A DNA stretch of 64,000 bases from an uncultured Planctomycetia bacterium (GCA_964415355.1 CAYPYS010000001.1:1361-65360), one strand, 5' to 3'; positions 20,992 through 49,311 are shown, numbered from the stretch's first letter. Made by a program: numbers and translations. Notes: generated by a model not told the origin, from the sequence alone.

Positions 20992-21000
20992 GCTCCTGCA

Positions 21001-23026: not shown

Positions 23027-23033
23027 AAATGCT

Positions 23034-23441: not shown

Positions 23442-23455
23442 GCTCCCCTCCCTCT

Positions 23456-23494
23456 CTAACTTTACATTTCAACAACGTTAAAGTGTAAAGTTAG
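23456..23494. repeat. 39-bp repeat, copy 13 (A)
   Basis: It lies between the UPF0280-like gene and the ferredoxin-NIL gene. Confidence 0.9.
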
Positions 23495-24222: not shown

Positions 24223-24233
24223 CTCAAATAACC

Positions 24234-24272
24234 CTAACTTTACATTTCAACAACGTTAAAGTGTAAAGTTAG
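24234..24272. repeat. 39-bp repeat, copy 14 (A)
   Basis: It lies between hypA and the UPF0280-like gene. Confidence 0.9.
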
Positions 24273-24610
24273 GCGATCTCGATTGAGTCAACGTAAATAC
24301 CTGAGCCAGAAATAATATCTGCGATCTTGCTATTGCAAACAGGGCACTCTAAGTCGCCCACGCAAAAGAACTCAGCCTGGCAGTTTTTACATTTAAACTT
24401 TGCCTTTATTTTTTTGAAATCCAATTCTACGGCGGCAAGAGGCGTGTCTTTTGTCCTCTCCCTGAAATGAAACTCAAAGTGACCCGGGCTAACATGCTCC
24501 AGCTCGCCTATTGCTATATTGATTTTTTTAAGCCTCGAGCCTGCTTTTGCTTCTTTTAATTTGGCATTGATCGTACAAATTATATCATCTACTAATCCTA
24601 TCTCGTGCAT
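24269..24610 (-). CDS. hypA: hydrogenase nickel-insertion protein HypA
   Basis: The MHE N-terminus and the CKNC...CPVC zinc site match HypA. Confidence 0.85.
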   Translation of the reverse strand: MHEIGLVDDIICTINAKLKEAKAGSRLKKINIAIGELEHVSPGHFEFHFRERTKDTPLAAVELDFKKIKAKFKCKNCQAEFFCVGDLECPVCNSKIADIISGSGIYVDSIEIA

Positions 24611-24623
24611 AACCGCTACCTCG

Positions 24624-25622
24624 CTAGCATATACGGGGGAACTGTTCGCCTCTTAACATGTCCAATATCCGTGTCCCGCCTATCTTGGTCTTTAAATAAA
24701 CTTTTTTGTCTTTTTGCTTCGTAACCTCTCCTATGACCTTGCTATTGCTCCCAAGCGCATGCCTCTTCAGCTTTGACAATATCTTCGAAGCAGATCTATC
24801 GGAAACAACAAGTACTACCTTGCCTTCGTTCGCCATATATAAAGGATCGAGCCCTAAAATCTCGCACAGCTCCCTTACTGACTCTTTTACAGGAAGCTGC
24901 GACTCCTCTATATATATATTGCGGCTGGACTCTATAGCCACCTCGTTTAGGGTAGTGGCGAGCCCTCCTCTTGTCGGGTCTCTCATAAATCTAACATCTG
25001 GACACAGAACAGAAGACACCAGGTCATTGACTGGCGCACAATCGCTAAAGATCCTTGATTCGAATTTCAGCTCTTCTCTCGCAAGAAGCACTGCTGCGCC
25101 ATGGTCGCCTATTGTACCGCTTACAATAATTTTATCGCCAGGCCTGATGCGATCGAGCGACAATCTAGATTCTTTAAGTATCTCGCCAAACCCGGATGTA
25201 TTTATGAAAATTTTATCCACTGCACCTTTTTCAACGACCTTAAAATCACCCGTAACTATATTCACGCCCACCTTCTTGCACGTGTTTTTCATAGACAATG
25301 TTATTTTCTCCAGGTCTTTATAATCAAACCCTTCTTCGACGATCATGCCACAGGATAGATACCTTGGCCTGGCACCGCATACAGACAAGTCATTCACAGT
25401 GCCGCACACAGCTAATTTTCCTATGTCGCCGCCTGGAAAAAATATCGGGTCAATGACAAAGGAATCAGTAGTATATGCGACTTTTCGGTTTCCGGTGTCT
25501 ATAAGCGCAGAATCTCCTAATTTATTTAAGTAAGAATTGTTCAGATTCTTCACGAATAAATCCTTTATCAGATCTTGCATCAGGCTTCCGCCGCTTCCAT
25601 GGGATAAAGTTATTTTTTTCAT
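24624..25622 (-). CDS. hypE: hydrogenase maturation protein HypE
   Basis: AIR-synthase-like fold with the C-terminal PRIC motif. Confidence 0.9.
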   Translation of the reverse strand: MKKITLSHGSGGSLMQDLIKDLFVKNLNNSYLNKLGDSALIDTGNRKVAYTTDSFVIDPIFFPGGDIGKLAVCGTVNDLSVCGARPRYLSCGMIVEEGFDYKDLEKITLSMKNTCKKVGVNIVTGDFKVVEKGAVDKIFINTSGFGEILKESRLSLDRIRPGDKIIVSGTIGDHGAAVLLAREELKFESRIFSDCAPVNDLVSSVLCPDVRFMRDPTRGGLATTLNEVAIESSRNIYIEESQLPVKESVRELCEILGLDPLYMANEGKVVLVVSDRSASKILSKLKRHALGSNSKVIGEVTKQKDKKVYLKTKIGGTRILDMLRGEQFPRIC

Positions 25623-26707
25623 CGTCTGTATTTAAAATACGCGGCGCACGTTCCTTCGCTAGAGACCATGCACGCGCCTACTGGTTGCTCAGGAGTGCAT
25701 TTTTTGCCAAATAACTTGCAATCAAATGGGACCTTTGCACCTTTAAGCACGCTGCCGCATATACAACCTACATCGGGCTTTGTTTTTATTCTTGCTAATG
25801 AAAATTCTTTTTCAGGGTCGAACATGGAATAATCTTTATTCAACTTCAGCCCGCTTTTTCCAATCTCGCCTATGCCGCGCCATTCTGTATCCTGAACAGA
25901 AAAAACCCTATCCATCAAGCGAAGCGCTTTTTCATTGCCTTTTCTCCTGACCACTCTTTTATACTGGTTCTCTACCTTTGCTCTCTTCGATTCGATCTGC
26001 TTTACAAGCATTAAAATACCCTGTAAAACATCAAGAGGTTCAAAACCAGCTATGACGCAAGGTATATTATATTTTTTGGCGATTGCTTCGTAAGGCGACA
26101 TACCTATAATAGTGCTTACATGCGCAGGACACAAGAATCCCTGTATGTTCACCTCGCGATCCTCCACCAAGGCCTTCATTGCGGGAGGTATTATTTTATG
26201 TCCGGCAAAGACAAAAAAGTTTTTGAGCTTTTTCTTTTTTGCATAGACCAATGTCACTGCCACAGTTGGAGTCGTGGTTTCAAAGCCTACCCCTAAAAAT
26301 ATTATTTTTTTATCAGTGTTTTTTTCGGCAATGTCGACAGCATCCAGCGGAGAATATACGACTTTGACAGATGCGCCTCTTGCCTTTTCCTCTATAAGAC
26401 TGGAATACGAACCGGGCACTCTCATCATATCCCCAAAAGTCGAGATTATTGTCTGCGGGAGCCCGGAAAATGCTATTGCCTTGTCTATGTAACTCTTCGG
26501 AGATACGCAGACAGGACAACCAGGTCCTGAAATAAGATTTATATTCTCGGGAAGCAGTTTACGAATACCAAACTTACAGATAGACATGGTATGCGTACCA
26601 CATACCTCCATCAGGTTTACAGCCTTTAGACCTTTGGCAGTGGCAAAAATAGCCTTTGATATCTTTTTGGCAATCCTATTATCACGAAACTCATCTATAT
26701 ATTTCAT
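25619..26707 (-). CDS. hypD: hydrogenase maturation protein HypD
   Basis: The CGTH and GPGCPVC motifs are present. Confidence 0.9.
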   Translation of the reverse strand: MKYIDEFRDNRIAKKISKAIFATAKGLKAVNLMEVCGTHTMSICKFGIRKLLPENINLISGPGCPVCVSPKSYIDKAIAFSGLPQTIISTFGDMMRVPGSYSSLIEEKARGASVKVVYSPLDAVDIAEKNTDKKIIFLGVGFETTTPTVAVTLVYAKKKKLKNFFVFAGHKIIPPAMKALVEDREVNIQGFLCPAHVSTIIGMSPYEAIAKKYNIPCVIAGFEPLDVLQGILMLVKQIESKRAKVENQYKRVVRRKGNEKALRLMDRVFSVQDTEWRGIGEIGKSGLKLNKDYSMFDPEKEFSLARIKTKPDVGCICGSVLKGAKVPFDCKLFGKKCTPEQPVGACMVSSEGTCAAYFKYRR

Positions 26708-31367: not shown

Positions 31368-31406
31368 CTAACTTTACACTTCAACAATGTTAAAGTGTAA
31401 AGTTAG
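31368..31406. repeat. 39-bp repeat, copy 19 (A), first of an inverted tandem pair
   Basis: It lies between the BioU-candidate gene and bioF. Confidence 0.9.
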
Positions 31407-32413: not shown

Positions 32414-32452
32414 CTAACTTTACATTTCAACAATGTTAAAGTGTAAAGTTAG
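32414..32452. repeat. 39-bp repeat, copy 21 (A)
   Basis: It lies between bioB and the BioU-candidate gene. Confidence 0.9.
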
Positions 32453-33504: not shown

Positions 33505-33540
33505 AATTGTCAACTTAAGTATAAGATCAAGTTAACAATT
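33505..33540. promoter_or_regulatory. inverted repeat AATTGTCAACTTAAG-N8-CAAGTTAACAATT overlapping the LacI-family gene stop, upstream of the bio operon; operator-like
   Basis: The arms are near-perfect reverse complements. The AATTGT...ACAATT ends resemble LacI/GalR-family operator ends. Confidence 0.35.
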
Positions 33541-34530
33541 CGATTGGCAGGAACTACGCTCTATGAGCTCTGCTGGTAATGCTATTTTTTTGTGACCCTT
33601 GATCCTTTTGGTCATAATCTGCTGCAATGTCTCTGTCGCGATCATAGCCATTTTATGCAAGGGCTGCCTCATGGTAGTGACAGGGACAGGGGAAAAGCTT
33701 AAAGCAAAAGGATTGTCATCGAATCCTATCACTGATATATCGCCAGGTACGCTAATGCCGTTTTCAAGGCAAACCTGTATCGCGCCGACTGCCATCTCGT
33801 CGCTCGCCGCAAATATAGCGGTCGGGGGCTGTTTTAATTTTATAAGCTCTTTGGTAGCTTTTATCGCGGAGTCCCTTCCGAAATCTCCATGCTTTATATA
33901 GTTATCCTTCTTTGTTATCTTATTTTTCTCGAGAGCCCTGATATAGCCATTGAGCCTGTCAATAGCTACCTGAGATTTCAACTCTCCTGTAATAGTCGCT
34001 ATCCTGGAATGTTTTAGTTTAGTCAAGTAATTAACCGCCTCGATGGAAGCATTATAATTATCTATAGCTACACAAGAAACAGGCAGGTCCTTTGTGTAGT
34101 AATTCATAATTACGCACGGCAGGTCCTTCCCAAGCACATCGTCCACCTGATCTTCGTTACCGATAATATCGGAAAAAATCACACCCTCCACAGCCGACGC
34201 GTTCAAAAAACTGTCTCCGTTTGTAATATGCAATAAAAGATCCAGCTTCAGCCTCTCGACTGCAACGCCGACGCCCTGAAGGATCTGCAGGGCATAGAAT
34301 GAATGGAATATATCAGAATATCTCGGAATTATAAGGCCTATAGCGTTATTCTTTTTTGCTGCAAGTCTCTGCGCGCTTACATTTGGCCTGAATTTCAATT
34401 TTTTAATCGCTGCCTCGACTGCCAGTTTATTGGCCTTTTTAACAGACGATAATTTATTTACAACCCGGGAGACCGTTGCTATCGAAACATGCGCTTCCTT
34501 TGCGACGTCTTTTATATTGATATGTCTCAT
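33532..34530 (-). CDS. LacI-family transcriptional regulator
   Basis: N-terminal HTH IKDVAKEAHVSIATVSRVVN with a periplasmic-binding-fold C-domain. Confidence 0.85.
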   Translation of the reverse strand: MRHINIKDVAKEAHVSIATVSRVVNKLSSVKKANKLAVEAAIKKLKFRPNVSAQRLAAKKNNAIGLIIPRYSDIFHSFYALQILQGVGVAVERLKLDLLLHITNGDSFLNASAVEGVIFSDIIGNEDQVDDVLGKDLPCVIMNYYTKDLPVSCVAIDNYNASIEAVNYLTKLKHSRIATITGELKSQVAIDRLNGYIRALEKNKITKKDNYIKHGDFGRDSAIKATKELIKLKQPPTAIFAASDEMAVGAIQVCLENGISVPGDISVIGFDDNPFALSFSPVPVTTMRQPLHKMAMIATETLQQIMTKRIKGHKKIALPAELIERSSCQSNC

Positions 34531-36026
34531 TCTAATCTCTCCCCTTTCTGACCCAATATGCTGGCAGTGACAAATATCAGCAGATTCTTTCTCTCCACGC
34601 TATCCGAGTCTTTTCTGAATAAAGCTCCCAATAATGGCATGTCGCCTAAAACAGGCGTCTTGGTGATCGTATTGGTTCTCGTCTCTTTTATCAGCCCGCC
34701 AAGGACTATTGTGTCCCCGTTCTTCACCACTATATTAGTGGTTAAATTTCTTGTGGTAAATTTAGGAAGTTTGACTTCTCCGCTGAACTCAAACGCATTT
34801 GCAGTCGCCTCGCTTACTTCGGGTCTCAGCGTCATCGTTATTATTTCTTTATCCGAACCCACGCTTGGCGTCACCTTAAGCAAGATCCCCACATCCCTTG
34901 TCTCAAATCCTTGAGGCACATTGATAAACCTCGTTTCCCTCACGCCATCCACGACATCTAAAAAATCACCGTCGTTATTCAGGTCGTTCTTTGTTAATGT
35001 CGGTTCGTATCTGGTCGGATAGACAAACTCATCCACTATCTCTATCGTAGCGGTCTGATTGTTTAAAGTCGTGATCTTTGGCGCGGACAAGGTTTTCAGG
35101 TTTGTCTTCTTTTCAAGCGCGTGCAGGACCGCTGAAAACTGCGGCTTTGTAAGCATGCCTTGATAAGTAAGGTTTAATCCTTCATTAGGCGCTCCTGTAA
35201 ACGCTGAAAAACTCGAACCAGTCCCACCGGCTATCTCAGTCACAGACGTGCCTGCATCTTTATAGATAGGAAAAGAAGTATCCATGGTTAAATTTAATCC
35301 AAACTCGCTTAGATCAGTGACATTTATCTCGACAAACCTTGTTTCTATCAAGACCTGGGTAGCGTCTATATCTAAATTATACAGGATCTCCTCTACGATT
35401 TTTAAATTTGAGGGCGTGTTTGTAATAATCAAAGCGCCTGTCCGATCGTCCAGATTGATCTTTGAATCGCTGGGCCACGAAACAGCATTATCCAGGACAT
35501 CCTTGATGGTATTGACCTTTGAAATACCGGCAGCACCTCCAAATCCACCGCTCAAACCAGCCGTAGGCCCTGAAAACTCAGTAAACATGGCAAGGCCCTG
35601 GTCTAAATAATAAATCCTCGTCTCAGACGCCTCTTCTTGCATCGCATCATAGGTATCGACCCACACTGCATTGTTTTCTATCCTGTATGCCAGGCCTTGA
35701 TGTCTGAATATGTATTTCAAGAGGCTTTCCAAAGACATGTCCTTGACCCTTATGGTGACCTTCTTCTCTTCCGGATCGACGTCTGATCCGAGAATTATAT
35801 TTACCCCTGTTGCCTCAGATAAAAAATCAAGCACATAATCAAGGCTTACGTCTCTAAAATCTACTGTTATGGGGATATCAAGCTTCCCTCTGATCTCAGG
35901 CACCTCTACGATAGAATTCTTCGACTGCGCATCGGTATCCTTTATAAACTTTACCTCATAGGCAGACGCTTCCCGCGCACAACAAATAAAAATAAAGATT
36001 AAAACTACACAACCAATCCTTCTCAT
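34527..36026 (-). CDS. secretin (PilQ/GspD family), short form
   Basis: The C-terminal secretin motif PVLGDMPLLGALFRKDSDSVERKNLLIFVTASIL is present. N-terminal secretin-N/STN-like domains precede it. Confidence 0.8.
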   Translation of the reverse strand: MRRIGCVVLIFIFICCAREASAYEVKFIKDTDAQSKNSIVEVPEIRGKLDIPITVDFRDVSLDYVLDFLSEATGVNIILGSDVDPEEKKVTIRVKDMSLESLLKYIFRHQGLAYRIENNAVWVDTYDAMQEEASETRIYYLDQGLAMFTEFSGPTAGLSGGFGGAAGISKVNTIKDVLDNAVSWPSDSKINLDDRTGALIITNTPSNLKIVEEILYNLDIDATQVLIETRFVEINVTDLSEFGLNLTMDTSFPIYKDAGTSVTEIAGGTGSSFSAFTGAPNEGLNLTYQGMLTKPQFSAVLHALEKKTNLKTLSAPKITTLNNQTATIEIVDEFVYPTRYEPTLTKNDLNNDGDFLDVVDGVRETRFINVPQGFETRDVGILLKVTPSVGSDKEIITMTLRPEVSEATANAFEFSGEVKLPKFTTRNLTTNIVVKNGDTIVLGGLIKETRTNTITKTPVLGDMPLLGALFRKDSDSVERKNLLIFVTASILGQKGERLE

Positions 36027-36034
36027 ATCCCACC

Positions 36035-36072
36035 CTAACTTTACATTTCAACAATGTTAAAGTGTAAAGTTA
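36035..36072. repeat. 39-bp repeat, copy 23 (A)
   Basis: It lies between the two secretin genes. Confidence 0.9.
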
Positions 36073-38796
36073 CTGTTCGCGTATTATCTTTTCGTCTATG
36101 GGCACGCTGGCAACCATGTTCTCTTCTTCGCCCAGGACACTAGCAGTCACGAATATCAATAAATTTCTGCGCTCTACATTATCCGTCTTTTTTCTGAATA
36201 ACCCGCCTACAAATGGAAGGTCGCCCAACACAGGAACCTTTGTCTTTATATTGGTATTTGTCTCCTTTATGAGTCCTCCCATTACAATCGTCTCTCCGCT
36301 ATCGATTATAACACTGGTACTTAAATTCCTTGTCTTAAACTGAGGTATAGAAACCTCTCCCGAATAAGAGAATGTACCAGAATCCTCGCTGACCTCCGGA
36401 GTCAACGCCAATGTTACAGTCTTCTTGTCTGCCCCCACGCTAGGCTTCACATGTAAAAGTATTCCAACGTCCCTGGTAACAAAATCCTGAGGGATATTCG
36501 CCCACTCTGTCTCGCCTGCGTCATCAAAATCTCCATCACCGTTTATGTCAAACTGCACCAGGCTGACCTCATACCTGGTAGGATAGATAAACTCATCTAT
36601 TACTTCTATCGTGGCTGTTTGATTATTTAATGTAGTTATCCTCGGAGCGGATAAAGTCTTTACATTTTGTTTTTCTTTTAAGGCATGCATTACAAACTGA
36701 AACTGCGGATGACTCAGTATCCCTTGATACGTCAGATTAAAACCTTCGGTTGCACGGGTGAAGCTCGAAAAATCCACGCCACTCCCCGAAGCAAACCCAT
36801 GTAAGTTCTGCTTTGAGTTATTTTGCTTAGCGCCCCAGTCGCTGTTTAATTTCCAATCGATGCCCAGCTCATCCACGTCCGTGACCTGCACCTCTAAAAA
36901 TCTCGCTTCAATCAATACCTGTACAGGCGTTACGTCAAGATTATAAAGCAGGTTTTCTACGATCTCTAAATTCGAGGGTATATTGCTTATGATAAGCGCG
37001 CCTGTCCTGTCATCGAGCGTCAACTTTGAATCCTTCGGCCAATCTACCGCGTTTTCAAGTATGTCCTTTACGGTACTGACCTCTGAAGACGAGTCGCCCT
37101 CTTCGCCGGAACTCCCTGAAAGTTCAGCAAATCTACCAATGCCTTGATTCATAAAATAAACCCTGGTCTCTACTTCTTCATTGTCCAGTTCTTCCTTAGT
37201 AGCTACCCATACAGCATCCTCTTCTATTCTGTAAACAAGGTCCTGGGATTTCAGTACATACCTCAGCGCCTCCTCAAGAGGCATGTCTTTTATCTTTATT
37301 GTAACCTTTTTCTCGGCCATATCGATATCGCTCGAAGGTATTATATTGACCCCTGTCGCCTCGGATAGAAAATTCAACACATAATCAAGTTCCACATCTT
37401 TAAAATCTACGCTTAACGGTATTTTTAATCTCTTCCTGATCTCCGGGACCTTTACCAGAGACACTATTTTTTTCTCTTTCTCTAAAATGCCGATCTTTTC
37501 ATCAGGTATAATATGCTTCTTGGCTATTTCCAAAAGCATCTTTGCTTCTACTATCTCGCGAGCCTTTTTAAAGGCCTCTTCCTCTTTTTTTATCTTCTGC
37601 TTATCTACATAATCCTTAACATCCTTAAACCTTCTGTTTTCCGGAAATTCGGCCATCGCTGTCCCGAGCATCTCTTCGGCATCCTCAAACTGCTCCTCCG
37701 CAACATGCACCCTTATGGCCTTCAGCAGCTCTTCTATTCTTGTAATCCTCTCTCTTAATTGCTGCTCCCTGAGCCTCTTTTCAAAAACTACCTTAAGCCT
37801 CTCCTTTTCCCTCTCTTTTTTAGCGCGCTCGGCCTCTTTTATCCTGTCTTCCCGCTCTTTCTCTATCTTTGCGCGCCGCGCCGCCTCCATCTTTGCCATG
37901 ACCGCCCGCTCTTCTTCCCTCTTTATCTCTTTTTGGGCGGATTCAATATAATATTCCGACCTGGAAACCAGGTCATTATCAGGGTCTAATTCCTTTACCT
38001 TTCTGAATTCTGCTATGGCCGTTGGATAATCTCTCATCTTATAATAACTCAGGGCCCTCTCGTATGCACTTTTTGTCTCCCGGGCCAATCTATGTTCTTG
38101 TTTCTTTCTTTCCTGCTCTATCGCCTTAAGGATCATCTCTTCTTCCTGCAATGCCCTCTTGCGAGCTTCTTCCCTCTTTATCTCTATATTCGCTTTTTGT
38201 ATATAAGATTCGGCCTCGGTTACAAAACGACTTTCTGGATCCAGATTTTTTATTTTTTTAAAATTCATTACCGCAAGAGCATATTTTTCATCAATATAAT
38301 ACTCGAGGGCCTTTTCATATGTATTTTCTATTTCCCGCGCGAGCTTTCTTTGTCCCTGCTCTATCGCCTTTAGCCTGTTTTCTTCCTCGACCAAAGCCCT
38401 CTCTTGCGCCTGTTGCTTTGCCAGCTCTTCTTCTTTAGCTATGCGCTCCGCCTCGCTTATTACGTCCTCCTCCATCCTCTGCCATCTCCTGTCCTCTAAT
38501 ACGCTCATCTCTTTTATTCTGGACCTGGACTTATCGATATATATCTCTGCGAAAGGCGTAAAATAAGACTCTCCCTGCGTCTTTTCCATCTCTATGATAT
38601 TCTCAAAAACAGAAATCGCCTCTTTATATCTTCCTGTCTCAAACAAGGACATCGCCTTTTCAAAATACTTCTTCAAATCCACTTTTGAAACCGAGATATT
38701 TTTGTTACTATATAGAGCGGTTTTGGCCAAGGCAAACGCCTGCCCGTTCGATAACAAAAGTGACAATATTAATATTATGCTTAAAATCTTTTTCAT
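36070..38796 (-). CDS. secretin (PilQ/GspD family) with ~600-aa N-terminal coiled-coil/TPR-like repeat extension
   Basis: The C-terminal 450 aa are paralogous to the adjacent secretin (PVLGDLPFVGGLFRKKTDNVERRNLLIFVTASVL). The N-terminal region has an internally repeated module (YEKALEYY...IKREEARKRALQEEE). Confidence 0.8.
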   Translation of the reverse strand: MKKILSIILILSLLLSNGQAFALAKTALYSNKNISVSKVDLKKYFEKAMSLFETGRYKEAISVFENIIEMEKTQGESYFTPFAEIYIDKSRSRIKEMSVLEDRRWQRMEEDVISEAERIAKEEELAKQQAQERALVEEENRLKAIEQGQRKLAREIENTYEKALEYYIDEKYALAVMNFKKIKNLDPESRFVTEAESYIQKANIEIKREEARKRALQEEEMILKAIEQERKKQEHRLARETKSAYERALSYYKMRDYPTAIAEFRKVKELDPDNDLVSRSEYYIESAQKEIKREEERAVMAKMEAARRAKIEKEREDRIKEAERAKKEREKERLKVVFEKRLREQQLRERITRIEELLKAIRVHVAEEQFEDAEEMLGTAMAEFPENRRFKDVKDYVDKQKIKKEEEAFKKAREIVEAKMLLEIAKKHIIPDEKIGILEKEKKIVSLVKVPEIRKRLKIPLSVDFKDVELDYVLNFLSEATGVNIIPSSDIDMAEKKVTIKIKDMPLEEALRYVLKSQDLVYRIEEDAVWVATKEELDNEEVETRVYFMNQGIGRFAELSGSSGEEGDSSSEVSTVKDILENAVDWPKDSKLTLDDRTGALIISNIPSNLEIVENLLYNLDVTPVQVLIEARFLEVQVTDVDELGIDWKLNSDWGAKQNNSKQNLHGFASGSGVDFSSFTRATEGFNLTYQGILSHPQFQFVMHALKEKQNVKTLSAPRITTLNNQTATIEVIDEFIYPTRYEVSLVQFDINGDGDFDDAGETEWANIPQDFVTRDVGILLHVKPSVGADKKTVTLALTPEVSEDSGTFSYSGEVSIPQFKTRNLSTSVIIDSGETIVMGGLIKETNTNIKTKVPVLGDLPFVGGLFRKKTDNVERRNLLIFVTASVLGEEENMVASVPIDEKIIREQ

Positions 38797-39323
38797 TCTC
38801 GTGCTCCGGGTTTTTCCTTCTTGGCTTTGAGGATTATTTCCTCTCCGCCTTTTTTCTGAAGCGCGACCTCTTTCTCGCTGATGCGTAAAACCTCGAAATC
38901 TCCAACCTTGCCGCCAGCCTCCGCAAAATAGCTTTTCCCCGTGCCCTGGTCTTCTATCACAACCATTATCTTCTCGCCCATCACTACCCTGCCTTTATAC
39001 TTCAGCACTGGTTCTTTCTTTTCTTCTTTCACAGCAATAGGCTCGACCACTACAATAGACTCACCCCTGACTCTAAAAAACGGGCTCCTCTTCAAAAGGG
39101 CTTTATAGCCGTCTGCTGCATCCTGCTCCTTAATAATACCGAAATCCCACTTATCTTTAAGCTGGGCCTTTTTCTTGGCCCTGCTCTTTTTCGTCGCAAG
39201 CTCTATCTCCTGCAGCAACTCCTGGGTTGCCTCCTTCTTTTTACCCTGCGAGAAAAACCCAAAAAGCAGCACCCCTATAAATACAGCGACAAGCGGCCAG
39301 AAAATAATCTTTTCTTTTATCAT
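38793..39323 (-). CDS. PilP-like pilus assembly lipoprotein (tentative)
   Basis: An N-terminal TM is followed by a C-terminal beta domain (YKGRVVMGEKIMVVIEDQGTGKSYFAEAGGKVGDFEVLRISEKEVAL). Confidence 0.4.
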   Translation of the reverse strand: MIKEKIIFWPLVAVFIGVLLFGFFSQGKKKEATQELLQEIELATKKSRAKKKAQLKDKWDFGIIKEQDAADGYKALLKRSPFFRVRGESIVVVEPIAVKEEKKEPVLKYKGRVVMGEKIMVVIEDQGTGKSYFAEAGGKVGDFEVLRISEKEVALQKKGGEEIILKAKKEKPGARE

Positions 39324-40084
39324 CCCTTTTCCGTCCTAGTCACCATGAATGTGCTCAAAACCAGGCTTACCTCTATATCGCTCTCTATTCCTTCAGAGCT
39401 TTTTAAATGTAGCTCTTTGACCGAGATCACAGGTGTTCTATTCTTAAGCTCCAGCAAAAGATTTACAAGCGATTCCGTATCCGTCTTCACTGAAAACTGC
39501 ACCGGCAATTCAGTGTAAAGCACCTCTTTGCTCAATGGCTCTATATAATCTATTGACCTCAACGGCTTTATCGCAGAAAATTCTATGTTCTCGCTCTCCA
39601 GTAATATGCCGACCGCGAGCTCCACTGTCTCCAGTTGCCTAAGAAGCGCCTCGACCATGCTATTTTTAGGGAGTCCGTCCCCAAAGCCTAGATTCTCAGG
39701 AAGCCCGACCTCTTTTGACGAAGCCTTTTCTGAAAATTTCTTCATCGACGCGTGCAGCCTCTCTATAAAATAAAGGCCTGCCTCGCTGCTCGAATCAGAA
39801 ATCCTGACCTTCGCAGGATCTACAAAATCTACGAGTTCCTGAAATTTATTATCCAGCTCCAATTTTTTTTCTTCGATCTTTTCAAAGCTATCCTTTGACG
39901 GCAGAGAACCTGTTCGCGCTATATATTTCTTTATCTCTACGGTTTTACGCTCAAGTTCGTCATCCAATATAGAGCTGCCTTCATTCATAAGCGGTCCTAA
40001 TACGAAAAGATACAGGGCCAATAATATGCCTATCACTATCGAGCCTTGTTTTAAAATAGCTTTTTCTTTCGCTGTTTTAAACAT
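39320..40084 (-). CDS. PilO-like pilus assembly protein (tentative)
   Basis: An N-terminal TM is followed by a coiled coil and a ferredoxin-like region. Position next to the PilM-N fusion supports the call. Confidence 0.4.
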   Translation of the reverse strand: MFKTAKEKAILKQGSIVIGILLALYLFVLGPLMNEGSSILDDELERKTVEIKKYIARTGSLPSKDSFEKIEEKKLELDNKFQELVDFVDPAKVRISDSSSEAGLYFIERLHASMKKFSEKASSKEVGLPENLGFGDGLPKNSMVEALLRQLETVELAVGILLESENIEFSAIKPLRSIDYIEPLSKEVLYTELPVQFSVKTDTESLVNLLLELKNRTPVISVKELHLKSSEGIESDIEVSLVLSTFMVTRTEKG

Positions 40085-40086
40085 CC

Positions 40087-41610
40087 CTAGCTCTCCGTCA
40101 CCACGTCCATGGTAATATTAAACTTTACTGTTTCCTCACCTGTCTTCTCGTCCACTTCCAGAGACGAGGATATCGGCTTTACATCTTCAAAGCTGGGAGA
40201 GGATTTCAGAGAAGATACAAATGAATTAACCGCCTGGTACGAAAGCGCCTTGCCTCCCAGGTCCAATCTGGCAAGTCCCCCTTTTTCCATGGAAACTATG
40301 CCCGATGCATCCGTAATCCAGACCTCTTCGGACAGTATCTCTGAAATAATACCAAGCACATCCAGCCAGATCGCCCTGGAGGAAGCCTGGTGATACAAGA
40401 TATCTATCTTTTCCATTAACACGTCTTCCTTGTCCTGCATCTTTTTTATCTTTGGTTCATAGGTCCTGTATACCTCAAGCATCTCGTCTACTTTATTCAT
40501 CTTGAGTCTCTTTACAGAATAATCCTGCCTCATAAATATAGAAAAACATATAAGCGTCAATGCCGCTACGGCAATAGAAAAACGGGAATATAATACCTTC
40601 TGACTATATGCATGTCTTTCGGAGATCATCTCTTTTAAAAAATTCACCTCTATCTTTAGATCTGTCATGCCCCTAAGCGCAAGCCCGATCGCAACGCCCA
40701 ACTGATTCTTAACCGTCTTCTTTGTCTCTAGATCCGAGAAGATTTCCTTTGAGATCCTTATCTTTCTAAACGGGTCCAGTATTTTAGCCTGGGTCTTGAA
40801 CTTGGACATAAGCTTTTGTTCCAATTCCTCGATCGCGCTGCCTCCGCCTGTCAAAAGCAACTCATCCAGTTTTTTTCCGCCTTGAGCATCCTCTCCGCTC
40901 TGCATAAAATAATATTCTATGGAACGTTCCACCTCTCCGATTATCTCTTCTATGCCCTGATCCTTTGACTCAGCAATCCTGTTCCCGGCTACAGGAAAAC
41001 TCCTGACCCATATATTATTCTTTTGAAAAATAACCAGGTTGGTAGTATTAGCGCCTATGTCCAATATAGCGCCCAGTTTTTCCCTGCTATAATCTTCATT
41101 GAATACCATGCAGTTATATAAACTTATAGGTTCGACATCTATTAAATCAGTAGAAAGCCTTATCGAATCCAACCTCGAGATTATATCCTCTATGATGTTT
41201 TTCTTGATGGCTACCACTACTGCCTTTTTTGTGCCTTTTTCTTCCCTGTCAAGCAATGACCAGTCCCAGGCCACTTCTGTCAGCGGAAAAGGTATCTGAT
41301 TCTGAGCTTCAAACTTCATAGTCTGCTTCAATTTATCTTCCTTGACCTGCAGGAGTTTTACGAATCTTATAAAGACAGATTGGCCCCCGACAGAGACATT
41401 TACGTGCTTCTCTTTGACATTGTTTTCGGATAACAGCTGAGATATTAGCTGAGTAATCGCCTTCTCCTTGTCAGCCTTTAAATTACTTGGTATCTCTTTG
41501 ACCCCGAATCTATTCAAGGTGATAGCATCTCCTGACCGGGCGAGTTCTGCAAATTTTATATAATGAGACCCTATATCCAATCCTATAGAGGTCTTCTTAA
41601 GCTTAGGCAT
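40087..41610 (-). CDS. PilM-PilN fusion protein (actin-like ATPase plus TM/coiled-coil PilN part)
   Basis: IGLDIGSHYIKFA is the PilM N-terminus. A C-terminal TM segment VAALTLICFSIF follows. Confidence 0.6.
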   Translation of the reverse strand: MPKLKKTSIGLDIGSHYIKFAELARSGDAITLNRFGVKEIPSNLKADKEKAITQLISQLLSENNVKEKHVNVSVGGQSVFIRFVKLLQVKEDKLKQTMKFEAQNQIPFPLTEVAWDWSLLDREEKGTKKAVVVAIKKNIIEDIISRLDSIRLSTDLIDVEPISLYNCMVFNEDYSREKLGAILDIGANTTNLVIFQKNNIWVRSFPVAGNRIAESKDQGIEEIIGEVERSIEYYFMQSGEDAQGGKKLDELLLTGGGSAIEELEQKLMSKFKTQAKILDPFRKIRISKEIFSDLETKKTVKNQLGVAIGLALRGMTDLKIEVNFLKEMISERHAYSQKVLYSRFSIAVAALTLICFSIFMRQDYSVKRLKMNKVDEMLEVYRTYEPKIKKMQDKEDVLMEKIDILYHQASSRAIWLDVLGIISEILSEEVWITDASGIVSMEKGGLARLDLGGKALSYQAVNSFVSSLKSSPSFEDVKPISSSLEVDEKTGEETVKFNITMDVVTES

Positions 41611-41828
41611 TATCTGTTCCTTCCGATTATATCTTTTAGCTTCCGTATTTCACTGGTAGTGTATTCCCGCCAGCCATTTACAGCATTGCGCTTGGGCTTC
41701 GGGAATACCTTTTTGTTCTCGTAGCGTATCAATGTCTGCTTGGATATCCCCAGAAACTCTGCGGCCTCTGTAGCGGAATAGAATTTTTCTCTCTTCATAA
41801 GCATCACCTCGCTCATTTGCATCTCCAT
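41610..41828 (-). CDS. small MerR/excisionase-type HTH DNA-binding protein
   Basis: YSATEAAEFLGISKQTLIRYENK is HTH-like. The gene overlaps the pilMN start by 1 nt. Confidence 0.55.
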   Translation of the reverse strand: MEMQMSEVMLMKREKFYSATEAAEFLGISKQTLIRYENKKVFPKPKRNAVNGWREYTTSEIRKLKDIIGRNR

Positions 41829-41912
41829 ACAATATTAGATATAATAACTTGATATACCCTGATAGCGCGTGATACAACTATATACTATCAAGTAGAATTT
41901 GTCAAGAGAGGG

Positions 41913-41951
41913 ACTAACTTTACATTTCAACAATGTTAAAGTGTAAACTTA
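41913..41951. repeat. 39-bp repeat, copy 24 (A)
   Basis: It lies between the 607-aa secreted protein gene and the HTH gene. Confidence 0.9.
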
Positions 41952-41961
41952 CGCGGGTGGG

Positions 41962-43785
41962 TTATTCTTCTTTCCAGAATCTGAAGGGCTTTTTCTTTAA
42001 TTTCTCTGGAATAATAAAGCTCTTTTTGCCTATGGTCCAGGTCCTCTCTGCCGGCACAGGGTCTATTTCGTCTTCGTCGATCTCTTCGTTGTTATTAACG
42101 TCCTTGGCAGCCTGTACCTTGAAATAATGATTGCCCTGGGCCAGATCTTCTTTGCGAATAGAGTCTTCTGCCGACCATTCTGACCATTCTTCATTGTCAA
42201 ACTTATACCTGAATATGCAATCAGACGCTGTAGCCTTAAAAGTAAATAACGCGCTTGTGGCCTTTGTGACCGCGCTCGGCCCGCTGGTAATTATAGTATC
42301 AGGGGCAGTTATAATAAGCTCTATAGTATCACTGAATATCTCTGATTCGTTGCCAGCAGTATCCTTGAATTTCACATAGACCTTGCGCGTGCCGCTTATG
42401 GCAGGCAATGCCCAATTATCCTTGTTCGCGGCAAAGGTTTCCCATGCCTCTGTATCAAAAACGCCATCATTGGAAATAGACATGCTCTGGACTTCTGTTA
42501 TGGAATCGCTGGCACTCAAAATAAGATCCACGTAGATTGAATTTGTCAATGCGTCCTGATTATTAATAATAATAGTGCCTGTGGGCGGCCTTGTATCAAC
42601 CGTAAAACTCCAGACCAGAGGCGAAGTGGCGTTTCCAACAAAGTCGCTGACTTCCAGGGATACTACATTGTCTCCTTCGCTCAAAGGAATGGACGGTATA
42701 TATACAACGCTCTGAGCCCCTTCGTCATAAGTTGCTGCTGCAGAAGATTTGTTTACTGTCATATCTATGGCATCCGGGTTAATGCCGCTATACTCATCTG
42801 AAGCATCGATCGAAATAGTAGGAGTATCCGTAGATATAATAATGCCATTTGTAGGCGTATACGAACCTACTGAAGGCGCAGTCCTATCTACCCAAATCTC
42901 AAAGGAAGCTACCTCTGTCCAATTTTTGGCCGTATTCTGACCCTTTAGGTTAAACACCCTTATGCCATCTGATAAAAGATCGCCCGGCGTCTGGTACGAG
43001 AAGCCCGTAGTATCGATCTCATCATCTGGTATGCTGCCCCAAGAAAAACTATAGCCAACCAAGTCTGCCCCGGTCACTGGATATTCCCAATACATATAAG
43101 GATTCCCGCAATCCTGCCATAACTTCGCGGGCACATCGTCGCCCACGGCAGAGACCCTTGCCCAGATTATAGGTGTTTCTATATCTGCAGCGGTAAGCCT
43201 GAATCCAGACGTAGCTACCTGCCAACCAGAATAATCAAAACCATCGCTGGTCCTGACGCGCCACCTGTAGCTCACCCCGGCCTCATCAGTAGGAAGTATA
43301 GGCGTTGTGTAACTGGTGTCGCTCGAAGAGATCAACCCGGAGTCAATCACAGTCGTAACAAAATTATCCTTTGAGACCTGGACCTGATAATAGCGCTGGG
43401 TGTCATCGTCTTTATCGCTGTAATTCCATTCGAGGCTGGGCGTGTCATCTACGGTCAACTCGCCATCATTAAAAGAAGCGATCGCGACTTCGGGAATAGT
43501 ATTATAGGTAGGCAGGCCTCCGCCGTATATCTTGTAATTTGTCCCTGTAGCAACAGCTGTCGCCACAGGAGAACCCATGCTGTTCTCGGAATTATAACTG
43601 GTGGAAGCAGTGCTAGTGCCTCCGCCGTCTGCTATTGTCGTCTGGAGTTTATAATTATCACTGCTCGAAACCGCTGCCAAGGATACGCTGCAGCAAATAA
43701 AAAAGACCGCTATAAAAAATACAGCGGCCTTAAATACAGAGATATCACTCCTGCATCTCATCATAATATATATTATAATACTCAA
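41962..43785 (-). CDS. secreted hypothetical protein (signal peptide; Ser/Thr-rich N-region)
   Basis: 607 aa with an N-terminal hydrophobic leader. I recognise no family. Confidence 0.4.
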   Translation of the reverse strand: MSIIIYIMMRCRSDISVFKAAVFFIAVFFICCSVSLAAVSSSDNYKLQTTIADGGGTSTASTSYNSENSMGSPVATAVATGTNYKIYGGGLPTYNTIPEVAIASFNDGELTVDDTPSLEWNYSDKDDDTQRYYQVQVSKDNFVTTVIDSGLISSSDTSYTTPILPTDEAGVSYRWRVRTSDGFDYSGWQVATSGFRLTAADIETPIIWARVSAVGDDVPAKLWQDCGNPYMYWEYPVTGADLVGYSFSWGSIPDDEIDTTGFSYQTPGDLLSDGIRVFNLKGQNTAKNWTEVASFEIWVDRTAPSVGSYTPTNGIIISTDTPTISIDASDEYSGINPDAIDMTVNKSSAAATYDEGAQSVVYIPSIPLSEGDNVVSLEVSDFVGNATSPLVWSFTVDTRPPTGTIIINNQDALTNSIYVDLILSASDSITEVQSMSISNDGVFDTEAWETFAANKDNWALPAISGTRKVYVKFKDTAGNESEIFSDTIELIITAPDTIITSGPSAVTKATSALFTFKATASDCIFRYKFDNEEWSEWSAEDSIRKEDLAQGNHYFKVQAAKDVNNNEEIDEDEIDPVPAERTWTIGKKSFIIPEKLKKKPFRFWKEE

Positions 43786-43802
43786 ACCCAGGAAATCAAG
43801 CG

Positions 43803-43841
43803 CTAACTTTACATTTTAACGTTGTTGAAATGTAAAGTTAG
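43803..43841. repeat. 39-bp repeat, copy 25 (B)
   Basis: It lies between the giant GspK-like gene and the 607-aa protein gene. Confidence 0.9.
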
Positions 43842-46800
43842 CGCTCGAAAACAACCCAGATCTTCTTTTCAGAAAGCACCCTGTCTTCGTCCAGTGTCTG
43901 GGCAGTTACAATTATCCTATATACATCTGAATGAACAGTGACCAGGTTTGAGATCTGTCTGAATCTATCTCTCTTATCCTCGTCTTCTCTACCCAAGGCG
44001 TCTGTAGAAATCAGGTCGCCTATACCAAGACGAAGACCATTATTGTCGCCAAATATTCTATTTGCAACTATGTCATCTGCGATGCCCTCGTCTATCCCCG
44101 GGAGCGCACTGAGCACTTTTTTAGAAGCTGTGTTGATGTTTATCTTGCCGTCGATAGTATTTACCGGGTCAAGCCTTATAAAATCAAAATGCGCTCCTCC
44201 TGTCTTTGAAACATTTTTTATCTTCAGCTCAAGCTCATTGCTCGGCGTGGAGACTTCGCTATCTGTTCCTATCTCTATATTCCCAAAAAGCACGCTTCCG
44301 CCTGGCCCAGGACTAAGCGGAGGCGTAAACGCAGTCCACGTATCGTCAGCAAGATGTAACGACACTGCGATCTCTTCTTCCTCTTCTCCAAATATCCTTA
44401 ATGTATAATACCCGTTTCTAATTCCGTCTTTTTCTTCCCATCGCCATACGCCAACCGAATCTCCTTCTCCTTCCTCCTCCTCATCGTCTTCTTCGCTTTC
44501 GGCAGCCTCACCATTCTCAAAATGATCAGTCAAAGGTGATGCCCTCTGAACCATTTTCCATGCACCTTCAGAACCAGGCACGATATGGTCCTCTGCCTCA
44601 AGTCTTATGCCAAAAACCGTCAATCTATCGGCTATCTTGGATACATCCTCTAAAGGCACGGCATCCCACTCTTTAAGGCCGGATGAAACAAAACCTATCT
44701 CGCCAACTGATGAAAAATTCTTATTCTTTACAACTACCTCTGTGATGTCGTGCTCTATTATCTCTTTTTCAATCTGGCCTTCCACCTCTATCTCTTCTAT
44801 CATCCCTTCATTATCATTTGGCAAACCAGGAGTTGCGCCATCTTCTGCGTCTGATGTATACCAACCTTCGGGGATACCATTTAGATTTGAATCAACTACA
44901 TAGCTGGGATCTGACCGCTCCAGACTTTTATTCGCAGGGATCCCACCGCTAAAATATTCCGCTGCGTCAACAATGTGGCCCATTGGATCTTTTAGAGTTA
45001 TGATATTTCCGTCAGGGTGCGGCTCGTTAGAGAGTAAATCAGAGCCCGGCACAACTGCTTTTACAAAATGAAGCTCGGCTGATTTTTCCTGTCCCCATAT
45101 AGACACAAACGATATATCGTTTCCCTGGATGCCGTCCTGCGAATCATCTCTATCAACGCAGAGCACAAGGTGCTCGTCCGGGCCAATGACCGTGCCGAGC
45201 GGAATAGACGCTGGCCAGCCCTGCTTGCTCGGGCCCTCGACGCTCCAGCCGCCAAGATTCACCTCGTTGGATGTGAGATTTACGAGCTCGATGTATTCAG
45301 CGTCTGGCTCCTGTGTCAATTCTATTGACTGAAAATAAGCGGACCCTGAATTCAGATTATTTTGCACTCTCACCGTGATCTTTTCATTAGAGACAGTAAT
45401 AGTCTTGCCGCCTCCGAACAATTCTCCGTCCAACATGTCTCTTGAGCGAGCGCCTCCTATCTCTACATCCCCCACCTCTTGACCCTGCATGCCAAACACC
45501 TTTACATAATATTGGCCGTTCGGCACACCCTGCCAGGTCCAATCCCCTTCGCCGGTCTTGCCGCCATTAGGTTCATCATTCTGAAAATAACTGCCCTGCC
45601 AGGTCCAATCCCCTCCGGGATCCTGTCCGTTAAAACTAGCCAATGAAGTGCTGGGCCTTGCCATTATTTCATTGATCCTTATACCCTCCACGCCCCGGAC
45701 CTCGACAGCACTAAAGCCTTCCTGTCCTAACCTGGGATATAATTCCAGATAGGAAAAATAACAGACTTCGTCTTCCTCTTTATTTTCCACTGTCAATTCG
45801 AGCATGTCCCTCTCTTCAAAAGAAACAGTGCCTATCCTTAATATCTCGCCGTGCCTCACTGAACCCTGACTCACACCATTAATGGCAACATCCCCTACGT
45901 ATTCACCCGCGACGCCGAACACGCCGATATAAAATTCCCCCTCGGGTAAATTCAACCACGTGATTACCAAAGGCTCGCTATCTTCGACATCGCTTTCATA
46001 GTGTCCGCCCCTCCAAACCCAATCACCTATGGGGCCTCTGTTCACAGCGCTCAGCCTATTGTATAGCTTCGACACCACGCTCTGACTGAAATCTTCGTCG
46101 CATGCATCTATTATGTTCACTGCTTTTTGAAACGGGTCACTTGCGCCTGCGTCTTCGAGGAGAACTAAAAGCGTAGCAGCGTCCATAAAATTTATGTTTT
46201 CCCTGAGCCTTCCTTCTACGTCTAAATTTTTATCCGGAGAGTACGAGGTAATATAAGGGTATATCTTTGTAAAATCACTTTCTTTTATGGATTGGATTTT
46301 GGCTAGTTCAAAAGGTGTTTCGAACGCATTGTCATCCGCGTACGGAGAAGATGGGACAAATTCCATTGGCTCGTCAATGCCTTCGCCCGCCTCGTCTATT
46401 ATGCCGTCCGCATTGTTGTCTATGCCGTCCGCGGCCAGGATCCTTTGGTTATCATTGTCATCCACCCCCATCTCTCCAGGCTCGCCGTCCAGGCCCAACC
46501 TGTGATCCAATATATCTTCGTATGTTTTCTGGGAATCACTCAACTCAAAAGAGGCGAGGAACGATTGGAGATCGAGTTCGTGCGGTGTCCAGCCTTCTGT
46601 AACCTTCAGTGGAGAGATATTTTGTTTGTCAGCGATGTTTATGTTTAGAAAACCTGACTCGTCCCTGACTAAAACAGCGTAACGACCGATAGGCTCATTC
46701 AGATCATCGTAAACATATATCCATTTTGAATCAAGCTCGCCGTCGCCGTCATTGTCGACATCAAAGCCCTCGAAAAGCGTAGCCCATGCGTCTTGGAAGC

Positions 46801-47023
46801 TATCGATATCCGGTTCGTCTTCCTTTATCACAGCCTGGGCATAGGTAACGCCGGACTCTGCAAGATACGAGGCTCGTGTCGCTTCTAAAAAGTTGGAGGC
46901 GGATTTCAACTCAAGCCTCATGGTAAAAGCAAAAGACACGGCCATTATGCCAGCGACCGCAAGTATGCTCACGACCAGTATAAGAGCGATACCTTTATTA
47001 TTACTATTACCCATGTCCCTCAT
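43838..47023 (-). CDS. giant GspK/PilX-like minor pseudopilin (1061 aa) with C-terminal helix-hairpin-helix
   Basis: The N-terminus GIALILVVSILAVAGIMAVSF is a pseudopilin-like TM. The C-terminus ININTASKKVLSALPGIDEGIADDIVANR is an HhH as in GspK/ComEA. Confidence 0.5.
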   Translation of the reverse strand: MRDMGNSNNKGIALILVVSILAVAGIMAVSFAFTMRLELKSASNFLEATRASYLAESGVTYAQAVIKEDEPDIDSFQDAWATLFEGFDVDNDGDGELDSKWIYVYDDLNEPIGRYAVLVRDESGFLNINIADKQNISPLKVTEGWTPHELDLQSFLASFELSDSQKTYEDILDHRLGLDGEPGEMGVDDNDNQRILAADGIDNNADGIIDEAGEGIDEPMEFVPSSPYADDNAFETPFELAKIQSIKESDFTKIYPYITSYSPDKNLDVEGRLRENINFMDAATLLVLLEDAGASDPFQKAVNIIDACDEDFSQSVVSKLYNRLSAVNRGPIGDWVWRGGHYESDVEDSEPLVITWLNLPEGEFYIGVFGVAGEYVGDVAINGVSQGSVRHGEILRIGTVSFEERDMLELTVENKEEDEVCYFSYLELYPRLGQEGFSAVEVRGVEGIRINEIMARPSTSLASFNGQDPGGDWTWQGSYFQNDEPNGGKTGEGDWTWQGVPNGQYYVKVFGMQGQEVGDVEIGGARSRDMLDGELFGGGKTITVSNEKITVRVQNNLNSGSAYFQSIELTQEPDAEYIELVNLTSNEVNLGGWSVEGPSKQGWPASIPLGTVIGPDEHLVLCVDRDDSQDGIQGNDISFVSIWGQEKSAELHFVKAVVPGSDLLSNEPHPDGNIITLKDPMGHIVDAAEYFSGGIPANKSLERSDPSYVVDSNLNGIPEGWYTSDAEDGATPGLPNDNEGMIEEIEVEGQIEKEIIEHDITEVVVKNKNFSSVGEIGFVSSGLKEWDAVPLEDVSKIADRLTVFGIRLEAEDHIVPGSEGAWKMVQRASPLTDHFENGEAAESEEDDEEEEGEGDSVGVWRWEEKDGIRNGYYTLRIFGEEEEEIAVSLHLADDTWTAFTPPLSPGPGGSVLFGNIEIGTDSEVSTPSNELELKIKNVSKTGGAHFDFIRLDPVNTIDGKININTASKKVLSALPGIDEGIADDIVANRIFGDNNGLRLGIGDLISTDALGREDEDKRDRFRQISNLVTVHSDVYRIIVTAQTLDEDRVLSEKKIWVVFER

Positions 47024-47053: not shown

Positions 47054-47092
47054 CTAACTTTACATTTCAACAACGTTAAAGTGTAAAGTTAG
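47054..47092. repeat. 39-bp repeat, copy 26 (A)
   Basis: It lies upstream of the GspK-like gene, next to the terminator. Confidence 0.9.
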
Positions 47093-49272: not shown

Positions 49273-49311
49273 GTAACTTTACATTTCAACAATGTTAAAG
49301 TGTAAAGTTAG
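49273..49311. repeat. 39-bp repeat, copy 29 (A), second of the inverted tandem pair
   Basis: GTAACTTTACATTTCAACAATGTTAAAGTGTAAAGTTAG. Confidence 0.9.

Follow-up and report, generated by a model that had tools for sequence, protein, structure and literature searches.

A tandem pair of PilQ-type secretin genes, one of them TPR-extended: one envelope conduit or two?

Introduction

In type IV pili, in type II and type III secretion and in filamentous phage export, the gate in the outer membrane is a secretin, a gated channel of 12 to 15 subunits. As far as we know, such channels are regarded as homo-oligomers that rely on separate proteins as pilotins or accessory rings. How should one read a locus in which two secretin genes stand in tandem, one of them with a long helical region ahead of its secretin part? 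Such a locus lies in a 64-kb stretch of DNA deposited as an uncultured Planctomycetia bacterium (GCA_964415355.1, CAYPYS010000001.1:1361-65360; 64,000 nucleotides, below called the window), and we refer to the two products as SecL, a TPR-extended secretin of 908 aa, and SecS, its extension-less paralogue of 499 aa. Judged from their sequences, both are intact PilQ-type secretins under purifying selection, encoded in one predicted operon. We put at roughly 0.4 the probability that both work at one and the same conduit through the envelope, in the simplest case as a mixed ring.

The close homologues of the pair all come from metagenome-assembled genomes of Candidatus Omnitrophota, and by sequence comparison the lineage of the pair is Candidatus Omnitrophota. 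This is an uncultured phylum of ultra-small, possibly host-dependent cells. Type IVa pili are among the traits that have been tied to a proposed predatory or parasitic lifestyle in Omnitrophota (PMC10066038); the Omnitrophota literature mentions such pili, and does not mention secretins. Co-assembly of SecL and SecS, if true, would change the view of how secretin rings are constructed and would offer a natural built-in pilotin or spacer. If the two do not co-assemble, the pair would show how a single cell equips two type IV filament machines.

Two intact secretin genes

Both genes are uninterrupted open reading frames (ORFs) on the minus strand, and the two tandem secretin genes described in the original prediction were recovered with exactly the limits given there (Table 1). 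SecL runs from a signal peptide through a helical extension to an N0/STN domain, an N3 domain and the secretin domain, and SecS is laid out as signal peptide (residues 1-22), N0 (~52-125), N3 (~171-224) and secretin domain (303-491), such that both paralogues have N0/STN, one N3-type domain and a secretin domain. Over residues 446-891 of SecL and 38-494 of SecS the two are 58% identical (458 aa aligned, 77% positives, E=0.0, BLASTP), which bears out their proposed paralogy, and the two segments that had been quoted as common to them, DFKDVELDYVL and DFRDVSLDYVL, both fall within the N0/STN domain, where the paralogues are 49-72% identical in 20-residue windows.

The domain annotation that had been suggested as a check returned Secretin, STN and TPR, with Secretin_N below threshold only. 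The Secretin family (PF00263, cutoff 27.5 bits) matches SecL with 137.3 bits (E 5e-40) and SecS with 145.9 bits (E 1e-42), each covering profile positions 1-168/169. STN (cutoff 28.4 bits) is reached by SecL at 30.9 bits and narrowly missed by SecS at 26.6 bits; FecR_C is matched by both (SecS 29.5 bits, cutoff 24.4), and Secretin_N scores 22.3 bits in SecL and 24.0 bits in SecS for a cutoff of 28.2. An AlphaFold2 monomer model of the secretin part of SecL is of low confidence, with a predicted local distance difference test (pLDDT) score of 26-67.

The signal peptides, read by eye, are hydrophobic N-termini with cleavage after AFA and before L in SecL and after EASA and before YEV in SecS; the cleavage site of SecL orthologues ends in FA followed by S or L, and SecS orthologues keep the form AxA before YE. 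A lipoprotein, that is a self-piloting 'liposecretin', can be ruled out for both proteins, since neither they nor their orthologues have a conserved lipobox cysteine.

Is one of the two copies a decaying duplicate? In the comparison with the nearest relative of the window (locus L001), the ratio of nonsynonymous to synonymous substitution rates (dN/dS) is 0.061 for SecS, 0.045 for the secretin part of SecL and 0.081 for its extension, and among 18 genomes both paralogues are equally conserved, with 160 positions fixed and identical and 37 fixed but different. Together with the uninterrupted frames, the full-length Secretin matches and the retention of both genes in all 25 loci considered in the next section, these values rule out a pseudogene, and the disabled copy named as the condition that would refute the original prediction was not found. 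Nothing in the window speaks for decay, the chance of which we regard as negligible; the only case that might be cited in its favour is a SecL orthologue in one metagenome-assembled genome (L024 9983-12489), split into overlapping ORFs of 498 and 422 aa by a frameshift or an assembly error.

Conservation and origin of the pair

One genome per GTDB species was scanned, with ORFs and hidden Markov model matches called in each. Every one of the 25 main-clade loci that have sequence 3' of SecL shows a SecS gene, encoding a secretin of ~500 aa, immediately after SecL. The SecL-SecS junction has a median of 1 nt, and in 13 of 29 Omnitrophota pairs it is a 4-nt ATGA overlap; most relatives other than the window and L001 have junctions of -4 to +14 nt, and the gap in the window is 43 nt. 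No internal promoter or terminator stands out at this junction. Upstream, the stop codon of P176 and the start codon of SecL overlap as ATGA, and promoter-like sites precede PilMN2 (41905-41877 and 41653-41626). The genes follow one another in the order GspK-like, Ig-like, PilM-PilN fusion, PilO/GspM-like, P176, SecL, SecS and LacI, and the synteny MscS-GspK-Ig-PilMN2-PilO2-P176-SecL-SecS-LacI is found in at least 20 genomes. Given the age of the pair and its conservation in many species, both proteins may work together.

The phylogeny that had been called for was computed by neighbour-joining (NJ) on the part from N0 to the C-terminus. It places SecL and SecS as sister clades with mirrored species topology, which points to an old duplication, and two single long forms (L018 and L019) branch outside both clades. 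The ancestor would therefore have been TPR-extended and SecS would be a duplicate that lost the extension; on the sequence evidence, SecL is the ancestral form and SecS an ancient tandem duplicate without it. Combinations of a TPR-bearing and a TPR-less secretin also occur as separate clades, in L026, in L043/L048/L051 and in five Auribacterota loci, the last with reversed gene order, and these could reflect repeated duplication.

Where have the paralogues moved apart? Nine of the 37 fixed differences lie in N0. The maximum of divergence is the first beta-hairpin of the secretin domain (residues 642-681 of SecL), at which paralogue identity falls to 0.24-0.32 vs 0.5-0.76 elsewhere and the lengths differ by 1 residue; alignment to V. 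cholerae PilQ suggests that this hairpin is the lip region.

The N-terminal extension of SecL

Ahead of N0, SecL does carry an N-terminal extension as first proposed, but its length is ~445 aa including the 22-aa signal peptide, not 600 aa. Its TPR-like character is confirmed by a Pfam TPR_2 match (43.7 bits) and by the helical hairpins of an AlphaFold2 model, built from an 11-sequence alignment, in which the extension is all-helical (mean pLDDT 82.4); a model of full-length SecL is concordant, with pLDDT 75-90 across the extension. The model resolves four modules, at residues ~38-100, 152-216, 238-302 and 352-427, each consisting of a TPR-like hairpin and a third helix. They are linked by two long helices, residues 80-168 (89 aa) and 275-366 (92 aa), which are roughly 44% and 54% charged and would each measure ~13 nm if straight.

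The original prediction had noticed a module that appears twice. That repeat is real, for modules 1 and 2 (numbered as in Table 1) are identical at 30 of 61 residues (49%, E 7e-19, direct pairwise comparison), but it involves only two of four related hairpin modules. A BLAST search of the extension against itself gave no off-diagonal match, and the repeat is visible only by pairwise comparison. Module 1 was found in the window protein, P0003 and L001 alone; it is absent from 27 of 29 aligned orthologues, and orthologues elsewhere have three modules. It is therefore a lineage-specific duplication.

The most charged part of the extension, residues ~296-345, has a charged fraction of 0.70 and a heptad a/d occupancy of 0.12-0.25 by a simple in-house measure, and the helix at 275-366, continuous in the models, holds 18 i/i+4 and 20 i/i+3 pairs of opposite charge. 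An ER/K single alpha-helix fits these modelled features better than a canonical coiled coil. The description of the region as a charged coiled coil thus stands as to helicity and charge, whereas a canonical coiled coil is disfavoured for the most charged segment, which has no heptad core.

What might such an extension do? A periplasm-spanning role, one of two that had been suggested, is plausible. The other, anchoring to peptidoglycan, found no support: Pfam and NCBIfam scans gave no match to the peptidoglycan-binding domains AMIN, LysM, OmpA or SPOR. The same scans gave no match of the extension to pilotin families at E<=0.001. With BamD (TIGR03302) the extension scores 26.3 bits for a cutoff of 81.4, and the closest folds to its model are those of BamD, at a high root-mean-square deviation and with many unrelated TPR proteins scoring alike. 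A Foldseek search with the full-length model returned high probabilities and low TM-scores, the latter because the monomer model is extended.

One conduit or two?

Two alignment sets are present in the window. The secretin pair ends a pilus/secretion operon whose upstream part is a set-2 unit (38793-47023) with PilMN2, PilO2 and P176, and a set-1 unit lies further upstream (49308-57363), with a GspE/PilB ATPase, PilC, a GspG-like pilin and minor pilins, PilX, and PilMN1, PilO1 and P147. The two sets are deeply diverged: PilMN1 and PilMN2 are 25% identical, and the two PilO proteins, like the two GspC-like proteins, can barely be aligned. Set-1 is widespread in Omnitrophota and has no secretin in 27 metagenome loci (L072-L098), in L099 or in L101. 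In GCA_018902915.1, set-1 (L101) and the SecL/SecS operon (L002) are on different contigs, so their adjacency in the window is lineage-specific. Two secretins directly follow a single alignment set in L051, L048, L026 and the five Auribacterota loci.

We favour, tentatively, the reading in which SecL and SecS serve one conduit. They would belong, as subunits, to a single type IV filament machine, whether pilus or pseudopilus, of a type characteristic of Omnitrophota and the Planctomycetes-Verrucomicrobia-Chlamydiae (PVC) group. A single operon would make both, with P176 translationally coupled to SecL and, in most relatives, SecL to SecS. SecS would have given up the extension while retaining N0 for docking, the N3 ring, gates and barrel, and in a mixed ring only a subset of the protomers would carry the extension. 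Rather than anchoring to peptidoglycan, that extension would provide an inbuilt docking module of TPR type, similar to BamD or a pilotin, on stiff charged helices of ~13 nm; it could aid assembly of the secretin at the outer membrane, and could also fix how far the channel stands from the inner-membrane platform. This reading is preferred because the pair is strictly adjacent and apparently translationally coupled, because pairs recur after single alignment sets, because SecS was never found in the secretin-less set-1 operon, and because the paralogues remain compatible in N0, N3, gates and hairpin lengths. A stronger form of it, which we consider doubtful, is an obligate hetero-oligomer, for example of alternating long and short protomers that bear a half-occupancy TPR crown on ER/K-helix stalks around the periplasmic vestibule. 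It would be, as far as we know, the first heteromeric secretin. If it were true, SecL would be a fused, genetically encoded counterpart of TsaP-like accessory rings or pilotins, and the recurrence of TPR-bearing and TPR-less pairs in Omnitrophota lineages and Auribacterota would mean repeated selection for the arrangement.

Several points weigh against a shared conduit. We know of no hetero-oligomeric secretin, the solved secretins known to us being homo-oligomers, and a literature search gave nothing on heteromeric or tandem secretins. Adjacency is the default outcome of tandem duplication, and the 'independent' duplications rest on a single NJ tree, in which gene conversion or an NJ artefact could mimic them. 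As modelled, the extension consists of isolated hairpins, not of a contiguous TPR superhelix as in PilF, PilW and BamD. Moreover, the lip hairpin, the most diverged region (24-32% identity), could mean two distinct barrels, and the secretin-less set-1 offers an alternative use for one of the secretins. These last points lead directly to the view that there are two homo-oligomeric channels, SecL on set-2 (PilMN2, PilO2 and P176) and SecS for set-1, in a cell that runs two filament machines, such as an adhesive pilus and a type II secretion system (T2SS)-like pseudopilus. The divergence of the two alignment sets, the loci in which set-1 has no secretin of its own and the strong divergence of the lip all fit this view, as do the 9 of 37 paralogue-specific fixed differences that fall in N0, the domain that binds PilP/GspC; so does the rule that the secretins known to us are all homo-oligomers, for which the literature gave no counter-example. 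However, SecS is never in or next to set-1 except for the lineage-specific adjacency in the window, pairs also occur after a single alignment set, and the tight coupling of SecL to SecS suggests a fixed stoichiometry. On balance we regard two separate channels as the leading alternative, somewhat less probable than one conduit.

Alternatively, SecL and SecS could be interchangeable isoforms of one channel, used according to condition or stage (SecS, for instance, as a 'light' channel for a different envelope spacing or a different need in assembly) with neither an interaction between them nor a separate machine. Every functional region of the channel is kept in both, and regulation is plausible in view of the coupled LacI gene, the histidine kinases and response regulators upstream and the c-di-GMP-binding MshEN domain of the ATPase. 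But the shared operon, the frequent 4-nt overlap and the lack of an obvious promoter or terminator between the genes stand in the way, for co-transcription and overlapping frames make differential expression hard, and we think this possibility quite improbable.

Distribution of TPR-bearing secretins

The original prediction called the SecL architecture unusual. It is normal for its lineage: more than 70 clusters (at 90% identity) of Omnitrophota proteins of 815-914 aa have the SecL layout, and TPR-extended secretins are the norm in the phylum, with lengths of ~760-2330 aa and 300 to ~1850 aa of TPR. Public labels for these proteins are 'hypothetical protein', 'TPR protein' or 'GspD' only, which are uninformative and could be improved. 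The Omnitrophota genome loci add secretins of 1081, 1313, 1323, 2096 and 2330 aa, and in Pfam scans of the 1081-, 2096- and 2330-aa proteins the added residues proved to be TPR, with up to ~1850 aa of it before N0 in the two longest of these. Single giant secretins of 1313-2333 aa are encoded at L027 5300-12298, L028 3734-10723, L038 5582-11869, L035 7610-11548 and L044 3-3971.

A profile of the extension (A2) was searched against 1.84 billion representatives. Full-length matches were confined to one 50%-identity representative, one 495-aa match and short fragments; the remaining ~500 matches were generic multi-TPR proteins or other TPR-secretins, and among them the search added further TPR-STN-secretin proteins of 899-1632 aa. 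It found no stand-alone 'free extension' protein of the kind looked for in a Rosetta stone comparison.

The architecture extends beyond Omnitrophota. A Verrucomicrobiae homologue is 31% identical across N0-N3-secretin, ahead of which it carries a region of its own (~350 aa, N-terminal) that Pfam identifies as TPR; the homology of its extension to that of SecL is marginal (E 0.09). Taken with PilQ of Akkermansia, in which a TPR-secretin fusion is already known, the Omnitrophota and Verrucomicrobiae examples make the fusion a PVC-group theme and not a peculiarity of the window. The literature search turned up no account of a conserved long-plus-short pair, of ER/K-helix stalks or of giant TPR-secretins.

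Comparison with known systems

Among solved structures, both proteins are closest by sequence to PilQ of type IV pili (for SecS, V. cholerae 6w6m, E 1e-27, from N0 to the C-terminus), followed by GspD proteins; RcpA, InvG and phage pIV are more distant, and a model-based Foldseek ranking agrees. For neither protein is the cutoff of any curated NCBIfam secretin model reached. The top-ranked model for both is NF042912 (Amuc_1098; 209.5 bits for SecL, 211.8 for SecS, cutoff 750), and scores fall short likewise for GspD TIGR02517 (203.0 and 210.8 bits, cutoff 351.35) and PilQ TIGR02515 (183.1 and 186.3 bits, cutoff 284.35).

For Amuc_1098, the 907-aa PilQ of Akkermansia, a 2016 account gave a pilotin-like, 'BAM-like' N-terminus with three TPRs, joined to a secretin; no outer-membrane protein of this bacterium is more abundant (PMC4960237). 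This PilQ is about the size of SecL, belongs to the PVC superphylum and shares with SecL, not with SecS, the TPR N-terminus and C-terminal secretin. The likeness extends to the Amuc_1098-1101 cluster, in that the PilM-like gene upstream of SecL matches Amuc_1101 best and PilO2 weakly matches Amuc_1100. Nevertheless, the scores lie far under the equivalog cutoffs of these families (210 vs 750 and 238 vs 650 bits), and the TPR hairpins of SecL differ in being spaced by charged helices of ~90 residues. For Akkermansia there is no mention of another secretin that lacks an extension.

With type IVa PilQ (V. cholerae 6w6m, P. aeruginosa 6ve2, M. xanthus 3jc8) the two proteins share the order N0, one N3-type domain and secretin domain, and the SecL gene also lies downstream of PilM/N/O/P-like genes, an order kept in at least 20 genomes. 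They differ in that SecL and SecS have no AMIN domain (no PF11741 match, although the distant homologues P0082 and P0083 have one), PilM and PilN are fused and the secretin is duplicated. The PilM-PilN fusions have the topology of GspL, and other features recall the T2SS: the ATPase scores 656 bits with the GspE equivalog model, above its cutoff of 630, and stays under the PilB cutoff, and there are GspG-, GspK-, GspM- and GspC-like proteins. All of the GspG, GspK, GspM and GspC matches are below cutoff, however, as are those of the secretins to GspD, and the secretins lack N1-N2 domains, with one Secretin_N-type domain detected. With a GspE-type ATPase and PilQ-like secretins, the filament may be either a pilus or a T2SS-like pseudopilus.

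An accessory or TPR module that serves a secretin is familiar from PilF/PilW/Tgl, from TadD on RcpA (8odn) and from the TsaP heptamer on 14-mer PilQ (6ve2). The TPR of SecL differs from the TPR pilotins in being fused to the secretin, in a protein that is no lipoprotein, and in forming, as modelled, isolated hairpins instead of 5-6 contiguous repeats. BamD (YfiO) differs similarly, since SecL has no lipobox and the similarity is one of generic TPR, not of family membership. The half-occupancy crown of a ring of alternating SecL and SecS would resemble the 7:14 ratio of TsaP to PilQ named in the 6ve2 entry.

Other features of the locus

Table 1. Positions in the window of the secretin genes, their parts and neighbouring features
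Feature	Position	Strand	Basis
LacI-family regulator	33532-34530	minus	Pfam LacI, Peripla_BP_3
SecS, extension-less paralogue, 499 aa	34527-36026	minus	uninterrupted ORF; Pfam Secretin
SecS loop matching that of SecL, residues 348-357	34956-34985	minus	
Palindromic REP-like repeat in the SecL-SecS gap, 31 nt	36039-36069	minus	exact copy of 29-copy window family
SecL, TPR-extended PilQ-type secretin, 908 aa	36070-38796	minus	uninterrupted ORF; Pfam matches
SecL secretin domain, residues 705-888	36133-36684	minus	Pfam PF00263
SecL D-I-N-G-D-G-D-F-D-D loop, residues 750-759	36520-36549	minus	GATE1 region
First beta-hairpin of SecL secretin domain, residues 642-681, putative lip	36754-36873	minus	paralogue divergence maximum
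SecL N0/STN domain, residues ~460-535	37192-37419	minus	Pfam STN, FecR_C; alignment to PilQ N0
SecL N-terminal extension, residues 23-445	37462-38730	minus	all-helical model
ER/K-type hyper-charged helix segment (putative), residues ~296-345	37762-37911	minus	charge, heptad and pair counts
Module 2, residues 238-302	37891-38085	minus	
Module 1, residues 152-216	38149-38343	minus	tandem duplicate of module 2
SecL signal peptide, residues 1-22, signal peptidase I type, MKKILSIILILSLLLSNGQAFA cleaved before LAKT	38731-38796	minus	read directly from sequence
P176, putative PilP/GspC-like, 176 aa	38793-39323	minus	NCBIfam GspC_delta 26.4 bits, below cutoff
PilO2, T2SSM_b/GspM-like	39320-40084	minus	Pfam, NCBIfam, synteny
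PilMN2, PilM-PilN fusion, Amuc_1101-like	40087-41610	minus	Pfam, NCBIfam, synteny
Palindrome, examples of further sites	32418-32448, 31372-31402, 41918-41948, 43807-43837, 47058-47088, 49277-49307, 57377-57407		

SecL and SecS have in common an invariant loop, D-[IL]-N-x-D-G-D-F-x-D, followed in SecL by AGETEW. Its invariant columns in SecL are D750, N752, G753, D754, G755, D756 and D759, and it sits in an insertion of 10-14 residues, relative to V. cholerae PilQ, in the GATE1 region. The loop resembles the calcium-binding loops of EF-hand and dockerin type, and the gate may therefore be metal-dependent.

The gap between the two genes in the window is occupied by a 31-nt imperfect palindrome, CTTTACACTTTAAC[A/G]TTGTTGAAATGTAAAG, that extends to ~39 nt as CCTAA...TTAGG. 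It occurs at 29 sites in 64 kb, on both strands, where 0 are expected by chance, and the copies that were checked are intergenic. The TAA on its left often serves as stop codon for the gene before it, and the right end, TTAGG.GG, lies just before the next start codon; the sequence yields spurious ORF starts that read TTG MLKCKVR. A hairpin is predicted at -8.5 kcal/mol, there is no Rfam match, and the element looks like a repetitive extragenic palindromic (REP)-like or intercistronic hairpin element. A variant is present at the same SecL/SecS junction in L001; a search of the other loci for the exact pattern found none, and this pattern missed the L001 variant.

On the downstream side of the pair, the LacI start codon overlaps the SecS stop codon (ATGA), and LacI, which comes after SecS in at least 20 genomes, is itself followed by biotin-synthesis-like genes. 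Upstream, the set-2 unit begins with a GspK-like minor pseudopilin of 1061 aa (43838-47023) with a lamin-tail domain, helix-hairpin-helix motifs and a weak match to Verru_Chthon cassette protein A. It is followed by an Ig-like protein of 607 aa (41962-43785); both are syntenic with the secretin pair and may be tip or adhesin components. The ATPase of set-1 has an N-terminal MshEN domain, which binds c-di-GMP (NF053729, 52.9 bits, cutoff 38), and no PilT was found among the scanned ORFs of the window.

The stretch at 55669-63996 takes in this ATPase and, upstream of it, four response regulators of single-domain type, a protein with two receivers and three histidine kinases, of which one has a GAF domain and another a degenerate GGDEF. 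An Rfam scan of the window gave three tRNAs only. Elsewhere in the window lie a dprA gene, encoding DprA (8737-9825), and a cluster of membrane-bound complex-I-like/[NiFe]-hydrogenase type with HypD (12779-26707).

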